In this document: positions 8,999 to 30,294 of the stretch, one piece after another | Position numbering within the stretch: the first letter of the stretch is position 1 | Layout: each line of letters starts with the position of its first letter | IMG/VR virus record: IMGVR_UViG_2541047086_000003 | Location: 62,001 to 126,000 of that record | Strand: one strand, 5' to 3' | DNA from: an uncultured virus (IMG/VR IMGVR_UViG_2541047086_000003) | Taxonomy: Duplodnaviria; Heunggongvirae; Uroviricota; Caudoviricetes | Length of the DNA: 64,000 bases | Program-made: the position numbers and the translations under genes | The notes under the pieces: generated by a model | The model's database searches: none | Told to the model about the DNA's origin: nothing | What the model saw: only the letters and a program-made list of their open reading frames with translations

Positions 8999-9080
8999 TC
9001 AAGAATTTAAAAATACTAACAACCTCCTGCATAAGCAGGAACGCTCAGGGCTTAATGCGGTTTATTCTCCCCCTGAGGAG

Positions 9081-9413
9081 CTAGATAACACGGGCAAGTC
9101 TTTCACGGTATAATTCGGCTGTAACTCGACTATCTTCTATATCAAACAAAATCGTTCTCTTATCTTTTCCCATTGCTTCTGCTAGAGTCTCTATTTCATT
9201 TTGAGAAAAACTATTTAAAGTGTCCTGTCTATTCTTTGTTATATACTCTGAAACTTCTATTAGGGTCCCTTCGAACATCACTTCGCCGAATTTAGATACT
9301 GTACAAATATTTTGGTTTCTTTTAAAGATTGTGTATCCGTTAATCTCTTCTTTTTGATTGTTGCTGATTTCTTTAATTTGATGAACTAATGTTTTCATTT
9401 CTCGTTCCCTCAT
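9081..9413 (-). CDS. Hypothetical protein
   Basis: ORF directly downstream of the promoter at 9435-9463. Confidence 0.7.
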   Translation of the reverse strand: MREREMKTLVHQIKEISNNQKEEINGYTIFKRNQNICTVSKFGEVMFEGTLIEVSEYITKNRQDTLNSFSQNEIETLAEAMGKDKRTILFDIEDSRVTAELYRERLARVI

Positions 9414-16399: not shown

Positions 16400-17617
16400 T
16401 CAGGTATCGAGCCAGTTTGTGAGCAGCTTCCTCATTCTCAAAGAAGGTATGTACAAAGTTATTTCTTCTCCATCCCTAATAGCAGACCTCCATACCCATT
16501 GCACTAACTCAGACAATGCAAATGCGTCCTGGTCTATTGTAATACTGTACTTTTCTTTAAAATAATTATACAGAACAGTATTCGTATATCTGTTTATTGT
16601 ATATGCTAAGTGTTTCTTATGCTTAAACTCGTTTGTAGCACGTGCATTACATGAAACAAAGCCTTTTGTATACCCATTGCCCTTTATTCTGTTCTTATGG
16701 TCTGAATAAGTCGTCCACATAGCTTCATCACTTGACGACTTAACAATATTATTAAAGTAATTGAATACATTGTTCTTCACCTTTTTGATTGTGTAAGGTG
16801 ATTTATTTTTATACCAATTAGAAGACAGTGAAAACTCCAGTTGTCCTATTGTGTTTAGATTACCTTCATATATTTTTATTTTGTTTCTTAACTCTTTCTT
16901 AAAGCTCCTTTCATAATCAGTACTGTGATCAATGAACCTATACTGCCCATCCATGTAAGCTGAAATGTACTTTTGATACTTAATGTTGTTCAGATCGTAG
17001 TAATACTTTTGTATTTGAGCATCAAACATATATGTAAGTATGTAAACCTCCTTGAATAACTGGAATACGTCGGCAGGAAAGTTCCAAATCAATATATTGT
17101 CTTTGAAATACATTAGGTTGTTATTTAACGCCATATCTCGAATATCATCGTATCGTGTTTCATAGTCTTTTTTTTCTTCATTCCATTTGACAAAACCGTC
17201 TTCAACATAAATCAAATTGGAATCAAACAGTGTTGTTAGATCATGTTTCTTCACCTGTAATTGTTCCACTACTTCCATGACTTCATCTAATATCAGTGTG
17301 TAATTGCCTGCAAGTATAAGTTCTTTTGTCTCGTCGTTTGCGTTTTTAAAAAGGTTATGAGTTGCCACAATGTTTTTATTCTGTGATAAGAGTTCGTGAA
17401 AGGATTCAAACTTATATTGTGTTTTATCACCTTTCTTCTTTACTTTAGGTTCGAAAAATTGTTTGGACTTTATGCTTTTCTTTATGCGCTCAACTTCATT
17501 TAAATAAGGTGTGATGAATATAAAGGTTTCTTCTTTACTGGCAGAATTCATTTTGTTAATCGCTGCAGATGTTTTACCGCTCCCCATAACCGAATCAACT
17601 ATTTTAATTTTATTCAT
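16400..17617 (-). CDS. yonV: YonV-like superfamily-2 helicase-like ATPase
   Basis: Walker A MGSGKT, ITPY (motif Ia), LILDEV (Walker B), QWVWRSAIR (motif VI-like). Confidence 0.8.
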   Translation of the reverse strand: MNKIKIVDSVMGSGKTSAAINKMNSASKEETFIFITPYLNEVERIKKSIKSKQFFEPKVKKKGDKTQYKFESFHELLSQNKNIVATHNLFKNANDETKELILAGNYTLILDEVMEVVEQLQVKKHDLTTLFDSNLIYVEDGFVKWNEEKKDYETRYDDIRDMALNNNLMYFKDNILIWNFPADVFQLFKEVYILTYMFDAQIQKYYYDLNNIKYQKYISAYMDGQYRFIDHSTDYERSFKKELRNKIKIYEGNLNTIGQLEFSLSSNWYKNKSPYTIKKVKNNVFNYFNNIVKSSSDEAMWTTYSDHKNRIKGNGYTKGFVSCNARATNEFKHKKHLAYTINRYTNTVLYNYFKEKYSITIDQDAFALSELVQWVWRSAIRDGEEITLYIPSLRMRKLLTNWLDT

Positions 17618-17636: not shown

Positions 17637-18485
17637 TTAAATATTATATATCCATTGTGAAAGCAGCTTTTCCATTCTCATCGAAGGAATGAACACTGTT
17701 AAAGGCTTATTGATATTGCCACAGTTTATTATCCATTTTAAAATCAAAGATAAAGCGTATGTATCTTCATCTAGAGATGACAACTCGTTATATTTCGCAA
17801 TCAAAAACGAGTTTGGGAAACAATTGGCTGCAAAGCACAGATAACTTTTCTTTTCCTTTAGCTCTTGACCATTGAGAGGTACAAATCTTTTCTTGTTTCC
17901 TTTGAATTCTAATTGTCTCGCATATTGTGTGAATGTTGTCCAGCAACGCTCTTGACTAGTTGATTTTGTTTGATTATAAAAATAATTATTCATATTCAAT
18001 TTTAATTGTTGCACAGCACCACCAGAGTTTTTATTGAACCAAGTTTTACTGTAGTCATATCTATTATTTCCGCTATGAAGCAACTTACCTTTTTTCTCGT
18101 GGATTATTAAGTTTTTCTTTAAGAGATGCAGAGTTCTCTCTGAAAGGTTTTTACAATAAAACACATCTTCTACGAAACTAGAAGGAGCTGAAATGCTCCG
18201 CATTGTAGTGGAGCTTAGAACATTATACAGACCGTCTGTGTCCTCTCCATCTAGCCACATTTGCTCTATTTTTAATAAATCCTTTTTCTTTTCTACATGC
18301 TCCAATATTTCGAATGTGAAATCATTTAAGCTATGTTTATCCCAATCTTTCTGAAGGATATGAGAATGGTGAACCCCATAATGTAGATCATTTATATGTT
18401 GTTCCCAACGTTTGAATACATTTATGCTACTTCCTATATATTTTTTTCCGTTATGCTTATTTGTTATCTGATATATTCCTTTCAT
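17637..18485 (-). CDS. GIY-YIG nuclease fused to a YonV C-terminal-like domain
   Basis: GIYQITNKHNGKKYIGSS...R...E; C-terminal ~170 aa aligns by eye with the YonV C-terminus. Confidence 0.8.
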   Translation of the reverse strand: MKGIYQITNKHNGKKYIGSSINVFKRWEQHINDLHYGVHHSHILQKDWDKHSLNDFTFEILEHVEKKKDLLKIEQMWLDGEDTDGLYNVLSSTTMRSISAPSSFVEDVFYCKNLSERTLHLLKKNLIIHEKKGKLLHSGNNRYDYSKTWFNKNSGGAVQQLKLNMNNYFYNQTKSTSQERCWTTFTQYARQLEFKGNKKRFVPLNGQELKEKKSYLCFAANCFPNSFLIAKYNELSSLDEDTYALSLILKWIINCGNINKPLTVFIPSMRMEKLLSQWIYNI

Positions 18486-18965: not shown

Positions 18966-19060
18966 TAGTGACTAAAGGGGAATTAATCCCCTTTAGCGTG
19001 TTATCTGCGTATACGTTTGCGTTGTCTCTTGCTACGGAGGCGCTTGCGTGTACGCTTTTT
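18966..19060 (+). ncRNA. SR6-like antisense antitoxin RNA
   Basis: Extended -10 TGTTATAAT (18952-18960) with TTTACA -35; hairpin CTAAAGGGGA...TCCCCTTTAG; ends in GCGTATACG/CGTGTACGC stem plus T-run; antisense to the yonT 3' end. Confidence 0.7.
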
Positions 19061-19180
19061 ATTTTTGCTTTTCTTATTCTTCATCAGGTTTTGAATCTTC
19101 TCAGCTATCGTTAAACAGTTGATGATTAAAACCGTGATAGGAATAAGGAAAGCAATTGCTATACCCACTTTCTCAAGCAC
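19001..19180 (-). CDS. yonT: YonT type I toxin (59 aa)
   Basis: GTG start after AAAGGAGGTG; hydrophobic N-terminus and basic tail KRTRKRLRSKRQRKRIRR; promoter ATGACT-17bp-TATAAT with TG. Confidence 0.85.
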   Translation of the reverse strand: MLEKVGIAIAFLIPITVLIINCLTIAEKIQNLMKNKKSKNKKRTRKRLRSKRQRKRIRR

Positions 19181-22323: not shown

Positions 22324-24198
22324 TTGAAAAGAAAAAAAGACGGATTGTCTAAGCAAGTTCACATATACAGCGTGGACACATCAGCATTTTATAATGACAA
22401 AGAAAATTCATTACATAATAAGATTTTGAAGTCTTATAGATACAGAGATTATCTTAAGACATTAGACAATGTAAATAATAAACATAAGAAATACATATCA
22501 CAAAGAATTACATACCTTAAAGAATGCCTCTATTCCGCATTCGAAGAACATAATAACATAAGAACACTTCGAACTGACAGCTTAAGGGATAATAAAGTGA
22601 TTTCTTTATTTGATTCAGTGTTGACCCGAACGTTAGGGATTAAAGAAAACAGCCTTTCAGAGGAAATCATGGTTGTCCAGACTTATCATTTTGAAGTATT
22701 GAAGGACATTATAGATCAAGGATTCTTACATAACAATGAAAAATACGTTTATTTCACGAGCAGCGCCGGTCAAATTCGTACAAAGAAGTCATGTTTCATT
22801 AAAAAAAGCACCTACGATAAGTATCAGGATGCTTTGACATGCGGCTTAAGTATTGAAAAGATAAACTCCCTTGGTGGTAGTAGCATTAATAAATGGAATA
22901 GTTATATGGCCTTATCTAACAGCGCCAGTAGCCCTTGGGAGATTGATATTGATAAAGCCATTGTAGTCAACGACTTAGAAACTGATGTGTCGAGTCTCGT
23001 TGACTACATTGATCGAGACACCTACAAGATCACACGAAAAACAATGAACATTCCCATTGAGCATACAGATGGCTGCGGAATGATACTTCCCACTCTTAGT
23101 CGTAAAAGCTTCATGGTAAGGCTCCCGTGGGTAAAGGGTTTATTAGTCCCTTTTGATTTTCGTAAATTTGCTGAGGAAAACAAAGCTTTTAAAGTAAATG
23201 ATATATACGGCAAGGAATGGGACGTAGTGAAAGATGATGTTCAAATTATCTTCACTAAAAGCCAGTTTAAAATGTGGAAGTATTATTCATCGTGGGAAGA
23301 ATATCAAGGCAATTATAAAAAATATGGATGCTTAGGGGCAAAACTCAACGAAGAAGACCCTTCTATTGAAGGTAAACTCACTTATCAAATGCTCCAGACA
23401 CTTACAGATATCTCAGATGAAGAATTAATTCAAATGAGCTCAAAGACTGTAAAAGAGATTACCACATTGGGAACTGACAAGGAAACCATGTTAAGAGTTC
23501 TTGGAGCTACGGAGAAAAAGAAACATCGGACAGCTCTTCAGGACGCTTTACTTCTATATCCAGAACTTCTTAACGATGATCACACGAAAGAAATTATTAA
23601 AAATAAAAAGAAAAGCATGATTAAAGATGCCAAATCAGGAAAATTGCTTGTTGATGGTGCTCGTTATACATACTTATGCCCTGATCTGTATGCTTTTTGC
23701 GAAAAATTATTTCTGAACATCCAGAATCCAAAAGGGCTTCTCTCAGGAAGTGATGTTCATTGTTCTTTATATGGTGAAGGGTATATTGATATCCTCCGCT
23801 CCCCTCACTTATACAGAGAGCATGGTGTTAGGTGGAACAAAAAAGCTGAGGAATATGAAAAGTGGTTCATTACTCCAGGTGTTTACACCAGTATTCATGA
23901 TCCCATATCTAAACTGCTGCAATTCGACAATGACGGGGATAAGGCTTTAATTATCTCTGATGAGTTAATCGTCAATATTGCCAAGCGTAATATGGAGAAC
24001 ATCGCTCCGTTGTATTATGAAATGTCTGTAGCCCAGAAACAAGAGATTAATAGCAGGAACATATATGAAGCACTTACTCTTGCTTATGGGATCAATATCG
24101 GGGAATACAGCAACAACATCACTAAGATATGGAACAGTGACAATATAAATCTGGACGTAATCAAATGGTTATGCATGGAAAATAACTTTACTATCGAT
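22324..24198 (+). CDS. yonO: YonO single-subunit DNA-dependent RNA polymerase, exon 1
   Basis: TDGCG, RSPH and catalytic DNDGD (23926-23940); frame stops right after NNFTID at the intron. Confidence 0.92.
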
Positions 24199-25489
24199 TA
24201 AATTTATAGTCGCGTCGCATAGCGATATGCGGATGAAAAGTCAGTGAACCTAGAAATCTAGGGTGTACATTCAGCGAAAAGTAGCGATAGGAAATGATCG
24301 TCAATGAGTGTGCTAACAGGGGAATTCTAATTAATACATTTTACATTTTTGAACAATGATATTTAAAACAAGGGGGTGACAAAGTGAAGTTTATAAATGA
24401 GGATGAGCATAAATATTTGAGCGGGATATATAAGATTGAGCAGATAAGCACCGGCTTAATATATGTGGGGAAAACTAAGATGAAATTTATTAAGCGTTAC
24501 TGGCATCACACTTGGAAGCTGAAAAACAATTCGCACTGTAATCGACATTTGCAGAATACCTGGAATAAATATGGAGAAAACGATTTCCAATTTCATGTAT
24601 TGCAAACAGTTGATCCAAACTCAGATATGAACGAATTAGAAACTCACTACATAAACGAACTAGGTGCCTATTTAAATGGCTTTAACATGACCACCGGCGG
24701 AGAGGGCAAGAGTAATTGTAAGATGTCTGACTCCACCAAAAGAATTATTGGGGAAAAGAATAGGATTAATAACACCGGAAGAAAGCTTAGTGATGAGACT
24801 AAAGCCAAAATGAGTAAAGCGAGAATTGGCAGAAAGCTCTCTCCGCAGCATAAGGAAAAGCTTTTACAATCTAGAATGAATAAAAGGCATTCGCCAGAAT
24901 CTAGATTAAAGATGCGTCAGTCTCATTTAGGGTCAAAAAATAAATCCTCAAAAATAAATGAAACGAAAGCATACGAGATAAAAGTTCGATTGATTAATGG
25001 AGAAAAGATGTTCGAAGTATCAAAGTCAATGTGTGTTTCCTACCCCATCGTTAAATCAATATTAGAGTGTAAAGTATGGAATCATATTCATGTTACTGGG
25101 TGGGACGACTTTATTCTTAAATACAAAAGCAAGAAGAAAAGCACTCTTACTTCAAAAGAAGTATTTTGCATAAGAGAACTTCTTAAAAAAGGGTTATCAG
25201 CACCCCATGTTGCAAAAATGTGTAACATAAAACCCAATGTTGTCTATGGAATTAAACAAGGAAGAACCTATAAAAATGTAAAATGAATGTAGAATGTATT
25301 ATATGAAAACCCTGTGCCAAGCGTTTACATCATGCTGGGAAGCACTTGTAAATGAAGGTGCAACGACCATCCTTTATGGAGTAATAATAAGGTGAAATTC
25401 CTTATTATGAAGCGCTGACCATCTGTCTAGCACAGATGATGATATGGTCTATTCCCTAATAAAATATCGGGAAACCGAGGGTATCAAAG
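24199..25489 (+). mobile_element. Group I intron (1291 nt) in yonO carrying a homing endonuclease ORF
   Basis: Exon ends in U24198 paired to G24209 (P1 CGAU/GUCG); P3 GUCAGUG/CGCUGAC; P4 ACAGGG/CCCUGU; P7 GACCA/UGGUC; terminal G25489; splicing restores [11 protein letters not shown]. Confidence 0.92.
24384..25286 (+). CDS. Intron-encoded GIY-YIG homing endonuclease with NUMOD3-like repeats
   Basis: SGIYKI...IYVGKT, GFNMTTGG, repeats GRKLSDETKAKMS/GRKLSPQHKEKL; GTG start after AAGGGGGTG. Confidence 0.9.
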   Translation: MKFINEDEHKYLSGIYKIEQISTGLIYVGKTKMKFIKRYWHHTWKLKNNSHCNRHLQNTWNKYGENDFQFHVLQTVDPNSDMNELETHYINELGAYLNGFNMTTGGEGKSNCKMSDSTKRIIGEKNRINNTGRKLSDETKAKMSKARIGRKLSPQHKEKLLQSRMNKRHSPESRLKMRQSHLGSKNKSSKINETKAYEIKVRLINGEKMFEVSKSMCVSYPIVKSILECKVWNHIHVTGWDDFILKYKSKKKSTLTSKEVFCIRELLKKGLSAPHVAKMCNIKPNVVYGIKQGRTYKNVK

Positions 25490-26131
25490 TTCGCAAAAAC
25501 CTTATTCATGCCCACCCGTCCTGATCATGTTGATGAAAAAATTAAAGATTACATAAAAAATAAAGTGCCCCACTTCTTTATCAATGCGAAGGATAAAGAA
25601 GAACATAGCGTTGAAAAACTGAATTTGAGTACAGTTAACAGGTTAGAAAAAGTTATTCCTTCTGAAAGAATTAATTTTAAATCTGTAGCAGGTTGCTTTG
25701 ATTACCGTACATTATTGAATAATAAGAATGCTAGATTAGATCAAGCAATAATTAAAGAATATACCAGGCTAGATCGCAACAAAAAGTGGTTAATGAACAG
25801 TGATGAAGGAGTTAAACAGGGGCAAAAGCTTTATGTCTATAAGATCATTAAAGATCGTTTAATGGAAATACACTGCAATGAGAAATACATAGTTGATGTT
25901 TTAGTCAAACACCTTTATATGAAGAAAAGCAAGTTTAAAACAACATTATGGGAATGCTTTGGTGAAACAATTTTATCTAATATTAGAAGGAATGTTTACA
26001 ACGAAATTGTATGCATCGAGTGTAGAAAGATAGTTAAAAATCCTAAGCAAAGACAAATAAGGTGTGAAACGTGCCAAAAAAAACATAAACAGTACTTGGA
26101 TAGACTGAGAAAAAAGAGAAATTCCGCTTGA
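25490..26131 (+). CDS. yonO: YonO RNA polymerase, exon 2 (spliced product 838 aa)
   Basis: TTC GCA AAA ACC TTA TTC ATG continues the exon 1 frame; C-terminal CIEC...CETC zinc ribbon. Confidence 0.9.
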
Positions 26132-26799: not shown

Positions 26800-28235
26800 A
26801 GTTCTTTTATTGATGGCATGGGGGTGTCGTCAATAATAAGCTGTTTACTGATATGTGGGATATCAGTTCTCCGCTAATATTCATTTGTTTGAGGACTTGG
26901 AATGCCAGGATTTCGGATAAGTGGATATTAGCGGGGTATTGCCCCATCGTGGATGAAGCTTTTTCTAAACATGTCTATTCTCTCTTTCATACGAACAAAA
27001 GCATTAAATTCGACTTTACAGCTACAACTGGTCATTGTAGTTAGTCGGATAATGGTCATTTATGAGGGTTCGAGGTTAACTCGAATCTCTGTATCTAAAA
27101 GAGACAGGTAAATGGCTATTATCGGGCTAAATATGCCGATAAGACTTAACGCATTATTGCAAATTGCGACTGAATCCCATCAGGGTCTTATTATGGGAGG
27201 CATATAGCCTGAATATTAATTGCGGTGCACTGCTTCGGCTTGCACTTAGGTAAGGCAGATGCGTCTCCCTTCCCTTTAAATAATGCCCTTGTAAGCTTTG
27301 ATGCTTATTATGCGGTCATCAAAAATTTTTCCGGGTTAGCGAGTCTTCTATGCTCGTAAAATAAGTGAGATGGTTTTTGGGCGATTGATCACCGCTCCCA
27401 TTTCACAGAAAAGGATTATTTTCGGTCTTGCCTTTTCAATTTCACTTCATCTCCTTCAATGTTCTGAATGGAGGCTTATTCCCATGCACATACCTCCTTA
27501 CACGGGTCAGAGAAAACTGTGCAAAATAAATGGCGAGCGTTTGAGACGCTTTGTTTCTCAATAAGGCGTGTAACCCGACAAGAGCATTAAAAATGCCATT
27601 GAGAAGGCTTATTAGGGTCTTTCCTTCTCAAATTATTTTTCCCTTGGCTCTCAGACTCTGCTGAGCAGTTGGCAAGCAACATAAAAACTTGATATATAAG
27701 ATGTTGGCAATAGGAACTTTAAACACGTCCCATAAAGTGTGTATTATTTGTTGTCATAGCTCATCTGCCAGGTGTAGAAGGAGAATCCGGTTTTCGCACA
27801 GCGATTACCGGTTTTTATGCTCATGTACCATGATGTACAAGGAGTTCCTGAAGACGTCATTATGACGTCTTTTGTTATTTTCGGCTTACTTATAGTTTGT
27901 CGACTACAAAGGTTTCAGTCGCTGAACCCGTAATCAGCGTATTCCCTGTCTAACCGAAGGCTTGCGTCCCAACGTGAGCTACTTACGTAGGTGAAACGGG
28001 GTTAGAATGTAATCAGAACAAGGTCATCTAAATCGTTAGAAGGTCTTTTTGTGCTTGCATTTTACTTTACCGATCAGCCGGAATGTGCTTCCGAGCCTTC
28101 CGGTACGCAAGTAATCAATAATCTCCTTCGGGCGTTTCCCCAACGCCTATCCGACTTATCTTTTCATCTCCTTTATATCCCCTTTTCGGACGTTACCGAT
28201 GCTTCGGATCATCGGGCTTCCGAAGGAGCTTATTG
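26800..28235 (+). ncRNA. Structured non-coding RNA cluster between yonN and yonK
   Basis: No credible ORF; more than 15 hairpins with G-U pairs on the plus strand, UUCG-type loops and candidate pseudoknots. Confidence 0.6.
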
Positions 28236-28466: not shown

Positions 28467-29654
28467 ATGACAGCTATTTTAGATACTGTTTTACAGCGAG
28501 AAAAAGACGAATCGTTCACTGATTATCATATTAGGCTTTTCAAGAACAAAGACACTTATCACATTGACACAAAAACAATTGCTGCACTATTAAATAAAGA
28601 TCAGGGAACCAACTATGATGAAAGCAAATGGCGTAAAGACTTTAAACAATTTGAGCGCTGGCACGATTACTTTATCTCAAAGAATATGAACAAAGAAGTT
28701 CAACAAAAACATGAAGAAATTCGCATTGAATCCGAAAAACAAACAATCAAAGCACGAGATCAAAAAAGAGAATATCGGAAATTCATTGCCAATCAAGCAC
28801 GGTTTGAACAAATTAAAGATGATGTCGTACAAGCTATTGCATCTCTAGAGTCAAAAAGACCCCTTCGCTTTACTTTCCCATCACCTGCTATTGATGAAAA
28901 ACATGGACTCGCGCTATTCAGTGATTGGCACTTCGGAATGGAAATCGACAACCGTATTAATAAATTCAATAAAGAAATTTTTAATGAGCGTGTGGAACAT
29001 CTCACCAACAAAGTGATTGAGTACGGTAAACAGAATCATATATCCACACTACATGTAGCAAATCTCGGCGATCTAATCGGAGGGCTTATTCATGTGTCTA
29101 CAAGAGTTCAAGCTAATGAAGATGCTGTAGAACAAATTAAATATGTATCAGAAACGCTTGCTGAGGTTTTAGCGATGTTGGCAAGTGAGTTTCAAGAGGT
29201 TAAGTTCTACAACGTGGCAGGAAATCACGGTCGTCTCTCCCCTTCTAAGAATGATGTGGGGATCAAAGAAAACTTTGAATACCTCATTAATTGGTATCTT
29301 GAAGCCAGATTGAAGAATATAAAGAACATCTCAATTGAACCTGAGCAAGACGGATTCATCCCCGCTAAAATCAACAATCAGGAAGTCGTGTTTGTGCACG
29401 GCCACTACGATCGTGTTGATCAGTGTGTAACACGATTACCTCAATTACTTGGCTACATCCCTTCTTACATATTCGGCGGTCATATTCATCACAATTATGA
29501 AAAAGAGTACGGCAGCACAACAGTTGTAGTAAATGGAGCGCTTGTCGGTGCGGATGATTATGCTATGCAAGGTCGGTTTGGCACAAAACCTTCTCAAAAA
29601 TTTATGGTTTTTGATGATGCAGGTATTGAGGCTACATACATAATTCGCTTTTAA
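28467..29654 (+). CDS. yonJ: YonJ calcineurin-like metallophosphoesterase
   Basis: SDWH, LGD, GNHG, HGH and GHIH motifs. Confidence 0.85.
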   Translation: MTAILDTVLQREKDESFTDYHIRLFKNKDTYHIDTKTIAALLNKDQGTNYDESKWRKDFKQFERWHDYFISKNMNKEVQQKHEEIRIESEKQTIKARDQKREYRKFIANQARFEQIKDDVVQAIASLESKRPLRFTFPSPAIDEKHGLALFSDWHFGMEIDNRINKFNKEIFNERVEHLTNKVIEYGKQNHISTLHVANLGDLIGGLIHVSTRVQANEDAVEQIKYVSETLAEVLAMLASEFQEVKFYNVAGNHGRLSPSKNDVGIKENFEYLINWYLEARLKNIKNISIEPEQDGFIPAKINNQEVVFVHGHYDRVDQCVTRLPQLLGYIPSYIFGGHIHHNYEKEYGSTTVVVNGALVGADDYAMQGRFGTKPSQKFMVFDDAGIEATYIIRF

Positions 29655-29814
29655 AATAAAAAGTTAAAGGAATGATCCTATGTCTGCCAATGAATTTATT
29701 GAAATATTAGTAGAACAGTGGGACAACCTGTCCCCTGAAAGCAAGAGCACTCTAGTAAATTTGATTGTTAATTGATATAAAACTTTAATTTTATACAGAT
29801 GAGGATGATGAGGA

Positions 29815-30294
29815 ATGAAAATGACGAATGAAGACTTTAAATATTTAAACAGGCATTTTGAACAGCTTATTAAATTAAGAGAATCTGGCTATAAATGTGA
29901 TTTTGAGATTAGAACTGTCTTAGATAAATTGCATGAAAAAATGGGTCTTGCGCAAAAAGCAACTATCGGAACATGTTCAATGCCTGGAATTAGTATAAAA
30001 GAACCGTCCGTTACTACTTCACAAGGAGTAGTTAATTATTCACCAGCATTTGGGTCATCTAAAGGTGGTACCACCTTAAACAGTCAGAAAGATAAACCTA
30101 AGCTATTGATTCTTGGTGAGCCCAGTTTGCTTTTTGAATTTTTCAAAGCATATATTGTACCTGAATCAACTGTTGTAAGATGCAATGCAAGTCGAGATCA
30201 AGCTCAGATAATTGCAGAGGAAATTGAGATAACTTTTTTGAAGAAGACGACCTCTACTAGGGGAATGAGATATGATTATAAATTATCTATGTAA
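29815..30294 (+). CDS. YonH-like hypothetical protein
   Basis: 159 aa; syntenic position. Confidence 0.65.
   Translation: MKMTNEDFKYLNRHFEQLIKLRESGYKCDFEIRTVLDKLHEKMGLAQKATIGTCSMPGISIKEPSVTTSQGVVNYSPAFGSSKGGTTLNSQKDKPKLLILGEPSLLFEFFKAYIVPESTVVRCNASRDQAQIIAEEIEITFLKKTTSTRGMRYDYKLSM

Follow-up and report, generated by a model that had tools for sequence, protein, structure and literature searches.

The window analysed here (the whole stretch of 64,000 nt) comes from a phage record that consists of one contig of 128,463 nt and includes a late gene block of the SPbeta kind, and its 24 closest phage records are all Bacillus SPbeta-like phages. On its + strand the RNA polymerase gene yonO is found in two pieces. 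Exon 1 (22324..24198) comprises 625 codons from a TTG start to the end ...NNFTID, matches the Pfam RdRP family (E 6e-8) and encodes the catalytic DNDGD at residues 535-539; the corresponding open reading frame (22324-24201) stops at a TAA formed by the first three bases of an intron. Exon 2 (25490..26131, 213 codons) starts with FAKT and encodes K628, which is invariant, as are four Cys residues towards the C-terminus. Exon 1 covers the PHROG profile phrog_8308 up to position 644, and exon 2 covers it from 645. A second PHROG family of 214 positions, phrog_37506, is labelled 'unknown function'; it is simply yonO exon 2 (25490-26131) and stands as a family of its own as an artefact of the unannotated intron. 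A 17-nt A-rich motif occurs in three copies upstream of yonO (~22006, 22072 and 22292), two of which directly precede ribosome sites. As the initial annotation had stated, YonO is described as the polymerase that transcribes the SPbeta late genes; the same paper gives it as required for plaques (PMC5467207).

The two apparently broken reading frames had been read as one gene carrying a precise intron with splice sites 24198/24199 and 25489/25490, and alignment with the intron-less yonO of SPbeta (L003, AF020713, 839 aa) agrees, the insert in the window being 1,291 nt (24199..25489). Exon identity to SPbeta yonO ties in four registers (57/60 nt), of which 24198/25490 alone gives U as the last exon base and G as the last intron base. 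Removal of the intron rejoins ID|FAK, also as predicted, and regains an 838-aa YonO with 678 of 840 alignment columns identical to SPbeta YonO. The intron opens with an in-frame TAA, as described for bacterial group I introns (PMC3984707), and ends in G25489; a terminal G is present in all 25 same-site insertions compared. We regard it as confirmed that 24199-25489 is a group I intron within yonO, inserted after Asp625.

The ribozyme fold was obtained by anchoring helices on invariant motifs that we chose, and was compared across eight lineages (the window, L059, L070, L066, L120, L155, L201 and L270). Over 11 helices, 460 of 465 helix cells are paired, with two-sided changes in 32 of the 60 pairs. 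Column shuffles, which ignore relatedness, gave a mean of 392 paired cells and reached 460 in 0 of 2,000 cases, and sliding the helix registers lowered pairing to 30-39%. The conserved, covarying fold bears out the group I identity proposed in the initial annotation.

All elements of the fold lie on the + strand. P1 (24195..24212, 6 bp) places the pair U(24198).G(24209) at the 5' splice site; 47 of its 48 cells are paired, and in L070 a C-G pair changes to U-A along with the exon. P2 (24216..24231) is a hairpin with a GNRA loop (48/48 cells, two-sided change in 6/6 pairs), and the P3 5' strand (24240..24246) pairs with 25413-25419 (56/56 cells, 4/7 pairs two-sided). P3 and P4 are separated by the P3.1 hairpin and the P3.2 domain (24249..24313), an arrangement shared with the intron of SPO1 gene 31. 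The segment 24316..24347 holds the 5' strands of P4 (24316-24321) and P5 (24325-24327), and the 5' arm (24332-24347) of a 16-bp stem, read from the sequence, that closes the loop containing an open reading frame. The 3' arm of this stem (25286-25301), P5' (25305-25307), P4' (25310-25315) and P6 (25316-25318 paired with 25357-25359) are located within 25286..25359. P7 (25363-25369, with a bulged C, paired with 25445-25450) has 42/42 cells paired and changes from GACCA/UGGUC to GACUA/UAGUC across lineages. Between P7 and P3' (25413-25419) lie P7.1 (25370-25380) and P7.2 (25384-25408); P8 occupies 25420-25438, and the P9 region with the terminal G (25451..25489) includes a GAAA-capped stem at 25467-25478. 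P3 and P7 form the pseudoknot core, with the G-binding pair in P7. Paired cells in the eight lineages number 48/48 in P4, 22/24 in P5, 24/24 in P6, 33/35 in P8 and 28/28 in P9. For P10, which is optional in some phage introns, the longest run is 3 bp in the window and 4-7 bp, in shifted registers, in relatives. The extra stems between P7 and P3 had been noted before and are borne out, while those between P3 and P4 had been overlooked. The intron core is a group IA2 ribozyme of the SPO1 type, a subgroup characterized by P7.1 and P7.2 between P7 and P3' plus P3.1/P3.2.

The closest named ribozyme is the intron of SPO1 gene 31 (DNA polymerase), at 74.7% over 83 nt of P3-P3.1-P3.2-P4, and it has the additional stems both at P3 and in the P7-P3' interval. 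The SPO1 intron interrupts a DNA polymerase gene and carries ORF 31.2 in P8, which we take to be I-HmuI of the HNH type, whereas the yonO intron interrupts an RNA polymerase gene and carries a GIY-YIG ORF in P5. GenBank flags SPO1 gene 31 as intron-containing. In a search with a group I model, as suggested by the initial annotation, RF00028 matched the 3' half of the intron at 18 bits (E 0.1), under its gathering score of 50. At that score it has no match in the window, and Rfam alone would overlook the intron. In two natural relatives that lack the ORF, RF00028 is matched over its full length with 38.3 and 47.3 bits (E 2e-8 and 5e-11), both below 50.

The spliced joint was sought in eight RNA runs of the 19 runs listed, all examined as contigs, and evidence was drawn only from parts of the stretch with contig cover. 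The predicted junction 24198|25490 was found exactly in one of the eight, RNA-seq run X8 of a relative, where a single contig of depth 3.2, with 77 nt on its shorter side, links 24198 to 25490 with no letters between. X8, which is RNA alone for its strain, also contains intron-bearing contigs. The other seven runs are without the joint; contigs of X2 and X12 are unspliced across both junctions and those of X1 across the 5' junction. The bases after the insertion site read TTC in 20/20 distinct intron-bearing close alleles and TTT in 24/24 intron-less ones. In X6, the sister run of X8, the allele contains the intron and shares its variants and its loose end with X8. Because the difference counts of the X8 pieces add up to the intron-bearing contig of X6 (14 = 2+6+6) and TTC is specific to intron-bearing alleles, the X8 joint fits splicing of a TTC intron allele. 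A TTT contig gives another signature, namely the X3 joint 24199-25493 with TT between, which was rejected as splicing since it reads TTT, the natural intron-less allele. The intron likely splices itself out to yield full-length YonO. Pieces of a related, apparently ORF-less intron core occur in record 2 of run X10, on a contig of 574 nt with a depth of 109.

The insertion site falls in a conserved part of the polymerase. Across 22 YonO proteins from intron-less genes, I624, D625 and K628 never vary, and the AlphaFold model of an intron-less relative (L009, pLDDT 85.9) puts these residues at the end of helix 610-629. This model matches RDR2 and QDE-1 (E 2e-18); searches with YonO sequences against the PDB gave nothing useful. 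In the trigger loop of QDE-1, V1115, D1116 and K1119 are reported to contact the incoming NTP (PMC9508822). The trigger-loop Lys of RDR2 is given as residue 923, 89 residues past Asp834 (bioRxiv 2021.08.31.458351), and YonO K628 has the same spacing, 89 residues past D539, the last catalytic Asp. On the basis of motif, spacing and overall fold, we infer that the intron splits a predicted trigger-loop motif, IDxxK. The insertion site would point to a trigger-loop-like IDxxK in YonO contrary to the founding paper, which states that YonO has no detectable trigger-loop homology (PMC5467207). The idea that the site lies in the bridge helix was dropped on the RDR2 and QDE-1 trigger-loop evidence. 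Because the intron splits the putative trigger-loop motif, the exon 1 product alone would not be expected to polymerise. The dependence of late expression on splicing, proposed in the initial annotation, is strengthened because exon 1 stops before the invariant QDE-1/RDR2-like Lys; given the requirement for yonO in late gene expression and plaque formation, late expression likely relies on splicing. A second intron site in YonO-like genes lies inside the catalytic DxDGD (L080 2749-3739, L358 and L362), and the intron in L080 has a weak HNH match.

The intron ORF (24384..25286, + strand) encodes a predicted 300-aa endonuclease with a GIY-YIG domain, NUMOD3 repeats and an HTH. It is preceded by a purine-rich ribosome site (24370-24377), and its stop codon abuts the 3' arm of the P5 stem. 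Since the two P4 strands lie at 24316-24321 and 25310-25315, the ORF sits in the P5 region, as had been proposed. PF01541 scores 30.9 bits on it (cut-off 22.6), and the C-terminal part contains NUMOD3 over its cut-off and a weak HTH, which make up a predicted modular DNA-binding part. The GIY-x10/11-YIG motif is present, and alignment to the N-terminal catalytic domain of I-TevI (E 2e-8) matches the catalytic residues Tyr, Gly, Arg, Glu and Asn, all of which are invariant among 18 relatives. Full-length relatives form a family at 46-58% identity. Of 11 distinct ORF-type alleles, 10 retain an unbroken ORF, and synonymous codon changes equal or exceed non-synonymous ones in 8 of 9 allele comparisons with the window. 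We found no RBS-hiding hairpin by the ORF (z +0.4 and +1.45), no sigma-70-type promoter on the + strand within the intron, and no I-TevI-like operator upstream of the ORF (1 of 18 tests at P 0.014, and none in the window).

An alignment of the 18 endonuclease relatives, chosen without regard to yonO, was used to scan viral contigs and returned 63 loci, 51 of them distinct. A YonO-like ORF lies upstream in 44 of the 51, the two P4 strands flank the endonuclease ORF in 40, and both features are present in 37. Among the seven loci without a YonO match, four are close to a contig end and three are weak matches without intron context. Splice sites were resolvable in 24 of the 51 loci, with 14 at the site of the window (including eight Bacillus near-copies) and 10 four bases upstream. 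These two sites track the clades of the host polymerase (1 change, 99/99). A co-evolution of endonuclease and site was discarded, the endonuclease tree being poorly resolved (5 changes; 116 of 500 shuffles as low). Given this pattern, a GIY-YIG ORF in P5 is an old family trait tied to the YonO motif. Two loci (L155 and L201) have a related core at the yonO site of the window, with an HNH-type ORF in P6 and no GIY-YIG in P5. In L355 and L356 the 5' half of the intron is swapped for unrelated sequence, and the endonuclease ORF and the 3' core are kept.

Exon 1 retrieved 76 viral loci, and in 22 of them, above what chance would give, the gene is split at exactly the codon of the window: nine are close ORF-type introns (~1,290 nt), three have 400 nt, six have 330/331 nt and four are distant. 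One more of the 76 is interrupted, inside the DxDGD motif. Other searches gave additional introns at the codon of the window, L155 and L201 among them. In the 24 SPbeta-like records, seven match the whole region and are ORF-plus, nine match in two pieces at 60% cover (phi3T, SPR, SPbetaL3 and hybrids; the ORF deletion was checked in phi3T), and eight match the exons only (SPbeta, Goe12 and Goe13 among them). Goe11 and BUCT083 carry a 1,290-nt intron with ORF at the site of the window, and phi3T carries one of 400 nt with the ORF deleted; their cores are ~98% identical. The GenBank records of all three phages list two yonO pieces and no intron. The ORF has been lost or broken repeatedly, for instance in the 400-nt allele of phi3T, the 330/331-nt alleles, L066, L120 and L270, and by frameshifts in L070 and L220. 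Alleles of yonO that are filled, ORF-deleted, ORF-less or empty occur side by side, which resembles the usual intron cycle of gain, decay and loss as described in PMC2504315.

The origin of the ORF-less alleles was also considered. The core of the window is nearer to ORF-less L066 (81%) than to ORF-plus L059 (74%). The 330/331-nt alleles (L015 4930-4950 and relatives) are 98% identical to the core of the window and have a short P5 loop that is absent from the window intron. That an intron without an ORF recently acquired one was suggested by the nearness to L066 and by the P5 of the 331-nt alleles, which is no remnant of the P5 in the window; this reading was set aside because ORFs in P5 are both widespread and old, and the change may have run in either direction. 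Intron cores are described in the literature as exchanging endonucleases (PMC11878797, PMC3984707). Mimicry of the homing site in P5 of ORF-less alleles, as expected from invasion by an endonuclease, gave P 0.35-0.94 over the whole intron in six alleles and P 0.03-1.0 for P5 only (one of six alleles <0.05), and this invasion model was rejected as unsupported.

Between exon clades that are only 77-81% identical far upstream, the intron is 96.7-98.3% identical, which fits lateral spread. Over codons -150 to +49, however, synonymous divergence between the clades falls from ~50% to 13-22% in intron-less alleles too (37 alleles). The tract of low synonymous divergence extends over ~23750-24198 and 25490-25640 in intron-bearing and intron-less yonO alike. 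Therefore, low divergence does not single out homing, and co-conversion specific to intron-bearing alleles was not seen; since intron-less alleles are equally homogenised near the site, ordinary local recombination could also move the intron across clades. The greater length of the tract upstream is suggestive by analogy with I-TevI co-conversion (PMC2988022).

The model that we favour, with high confidence, is that the IA2 intron after YonO Asp625 likely self-splices and that its P5 GIY-YIG endonuclease likely drives homing into intron-free yonO. The host polymerase would transcribe yonO and ribosomes would halt at the TAA that opens the intron, while the ribozyme, once folded, splices with guanosine as its cofactor. 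Only the spliced 838-aa YonO would work, because the intron parts Asp625 from Lys628 of the putative IDxxK motif, and the late genes would depend on splicing. The endonuclease likely cuts intron-free yonO and spreads the intron by homing: an I-TevI-like enzyme may bind across the exon junction and cut nearby, and recombination would copy the intron into co-infecting phages or resident prophages. The endonuclease ORF would later decay or be deleted, as in phi3T.

Possibly, although we would not expect it, the intron splices and the endonuclease serves mainly as a weapon that cuts the essential yonO of a rival, blocks its late genes and benefits the carrier phage. The invariance of the target codons in yonO, the requirement of yonO for plaques (PMC5467207) and the sharing of one host by ORF-plus, ORF-deleted and intron-less phages (7, 9 and 8 of 24 SPbeta-like records) agree with such a role, whereas the repeated loss or breakage of the ORF is what a selfish cycle predicts. 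A competitive benefit to the phage is speculation at present, for which PhiPA3 provides the precedent: gp210 is a group I intron endonuclease in the virion RNA polymerase beta gene that targets the intron-less allele of the relative PhiKZ (Birkholz et al. 2024, PMC11620839). As described there, the PhiPA3 intron, like that of yonO, directly follows a conserved Asp in a phage-encoded RNA polymerase. Interference has been demonstrated for gp210, whereas the yonO enzyme is known from its sequence; PhiPA3 is a lytic jumbo phage with a multi-subunit polymerase and an HNH nickase, and yonO has a GIY-YIG enzyme (PMC11620839). Somewhat more doubtful is a broader proposal, in which an old lineage of P5 GIY-YIG introns is specialised on YonO-like trigger-loop codons of Firmicutes phages, with a 4-nt shift between polymerase clades, and would act in SPbeta-like phages as a weapon against rivals or prophages. 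The tie of the P5 GIY-YIG family to YonO-like genes is itself established at the level of sequence comparison.

It is rather unlikely that the intron splices and no longer homes, with an endonuclease that is silent or blind to present yonO alleles and an intron spread by ordinary recombination. Homogenisation near the site is equal with or without the intron, neither a + strand sigma-70-type promoter nor an operator-like site was found, and many alleles still lack the intron (in clades A and B, 21 of the 39 distinct ones); against this stand a good ribosome site, full-length relatives at 46-58% identity, and a frame and catalytic residues that 10 of 11 alleles keep intact. Finally, a split polymerase with separately translated halves and dispensable splicing, as the annotation yonO_1/yonO_2 implies and as an in-frame ATG at 25508 in exon 2 and mostly unspliced RNA contigs would allow, is highly improbable, given that a protein from 25508 lacks FAKTLF with the invariant K628, T629 and L630, that the ribozyme core is kept with compensatory changes even after ORF loss, and that the exact spliced joint exists in run X8.

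Our preferred reading, a self-splicing and homing intron, follows the standard mechanism for such elements. The T4 td intron with I-TevI is likewise of IA2 type with a GIY-YIG ORF whose end touches the intron structure (PMC2988022). The yonO ORF differs from it in that NUMOD3 repeats and an HTH would serve DNA binding and neither an RBS-hiding hairpin nor an operator-like site was found. The SPbeta bnrdE/bnrdF introns were reportedly described by Lazarevic. Their location in these ribonucleotide reductase genes, which the initial annotation had named, is also given in PMC8270828; they too are of group I and interrupt essential genes in this group of phages, host genes other than yonO, which is intron-less in SPbeta itself. 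Group I introns are also noted in the polymerase genes of AR9 and PBS1 (PMC12350094).

We found no published report of the yonO intron in the main texts of open papers. The word 'intron' is absent from the main text of the SPbeta comparative preprint, and the yonO intron is unmentioned in the available text of PMC2919709, PMC8270828, PMC11368388, PMC9756591 and PMC7824862. The intron is thus apparently unreported in this gene, although polymerase-gene introns with endonucleases are already published (PMC11620839, PMC12350094). New here are the site, which splits the predicted IDxxK, and the endonuclease family tied to YonO-like genes, with its lodging in P5. Since the mechanism is standard, the value lies in a correction to the records of phi3T, Goe11 and BUCT083, much-used model phages listed with a broken yonO, in the motif-tied family and in a natural panel of isolated phages on a single laboratory host: Goe11 (ORF-plus), phi3T (ORF-deleted) and SPbeta (intron-less). 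This panel bears on the question of whether intron endonucleases are selfish or help the phage, and is the first with temperate phages, whose target may be in the host chromosome.

Other mobile and structured elements were noted. A second, free-standing GIY-YIG gene is located in the window at 17637-18485 (- strand), and the C-terminal half of its product is a copy of the end of the helicase-like protein encoded next to it at 16400-17617 (32% over 164 aa, E 3e-22). The phage genome contains three more group I-like cores on the - strand (G000:C1 ~29051-29937, 15741 and 12506). Rfam matches above cut-off in the window comprise a pistol ribozyme (9018-9081, -), the SR6 antitoxin RNA (18969-19066, +) and a DUF3800-VIII RNA (27940-28005, +).
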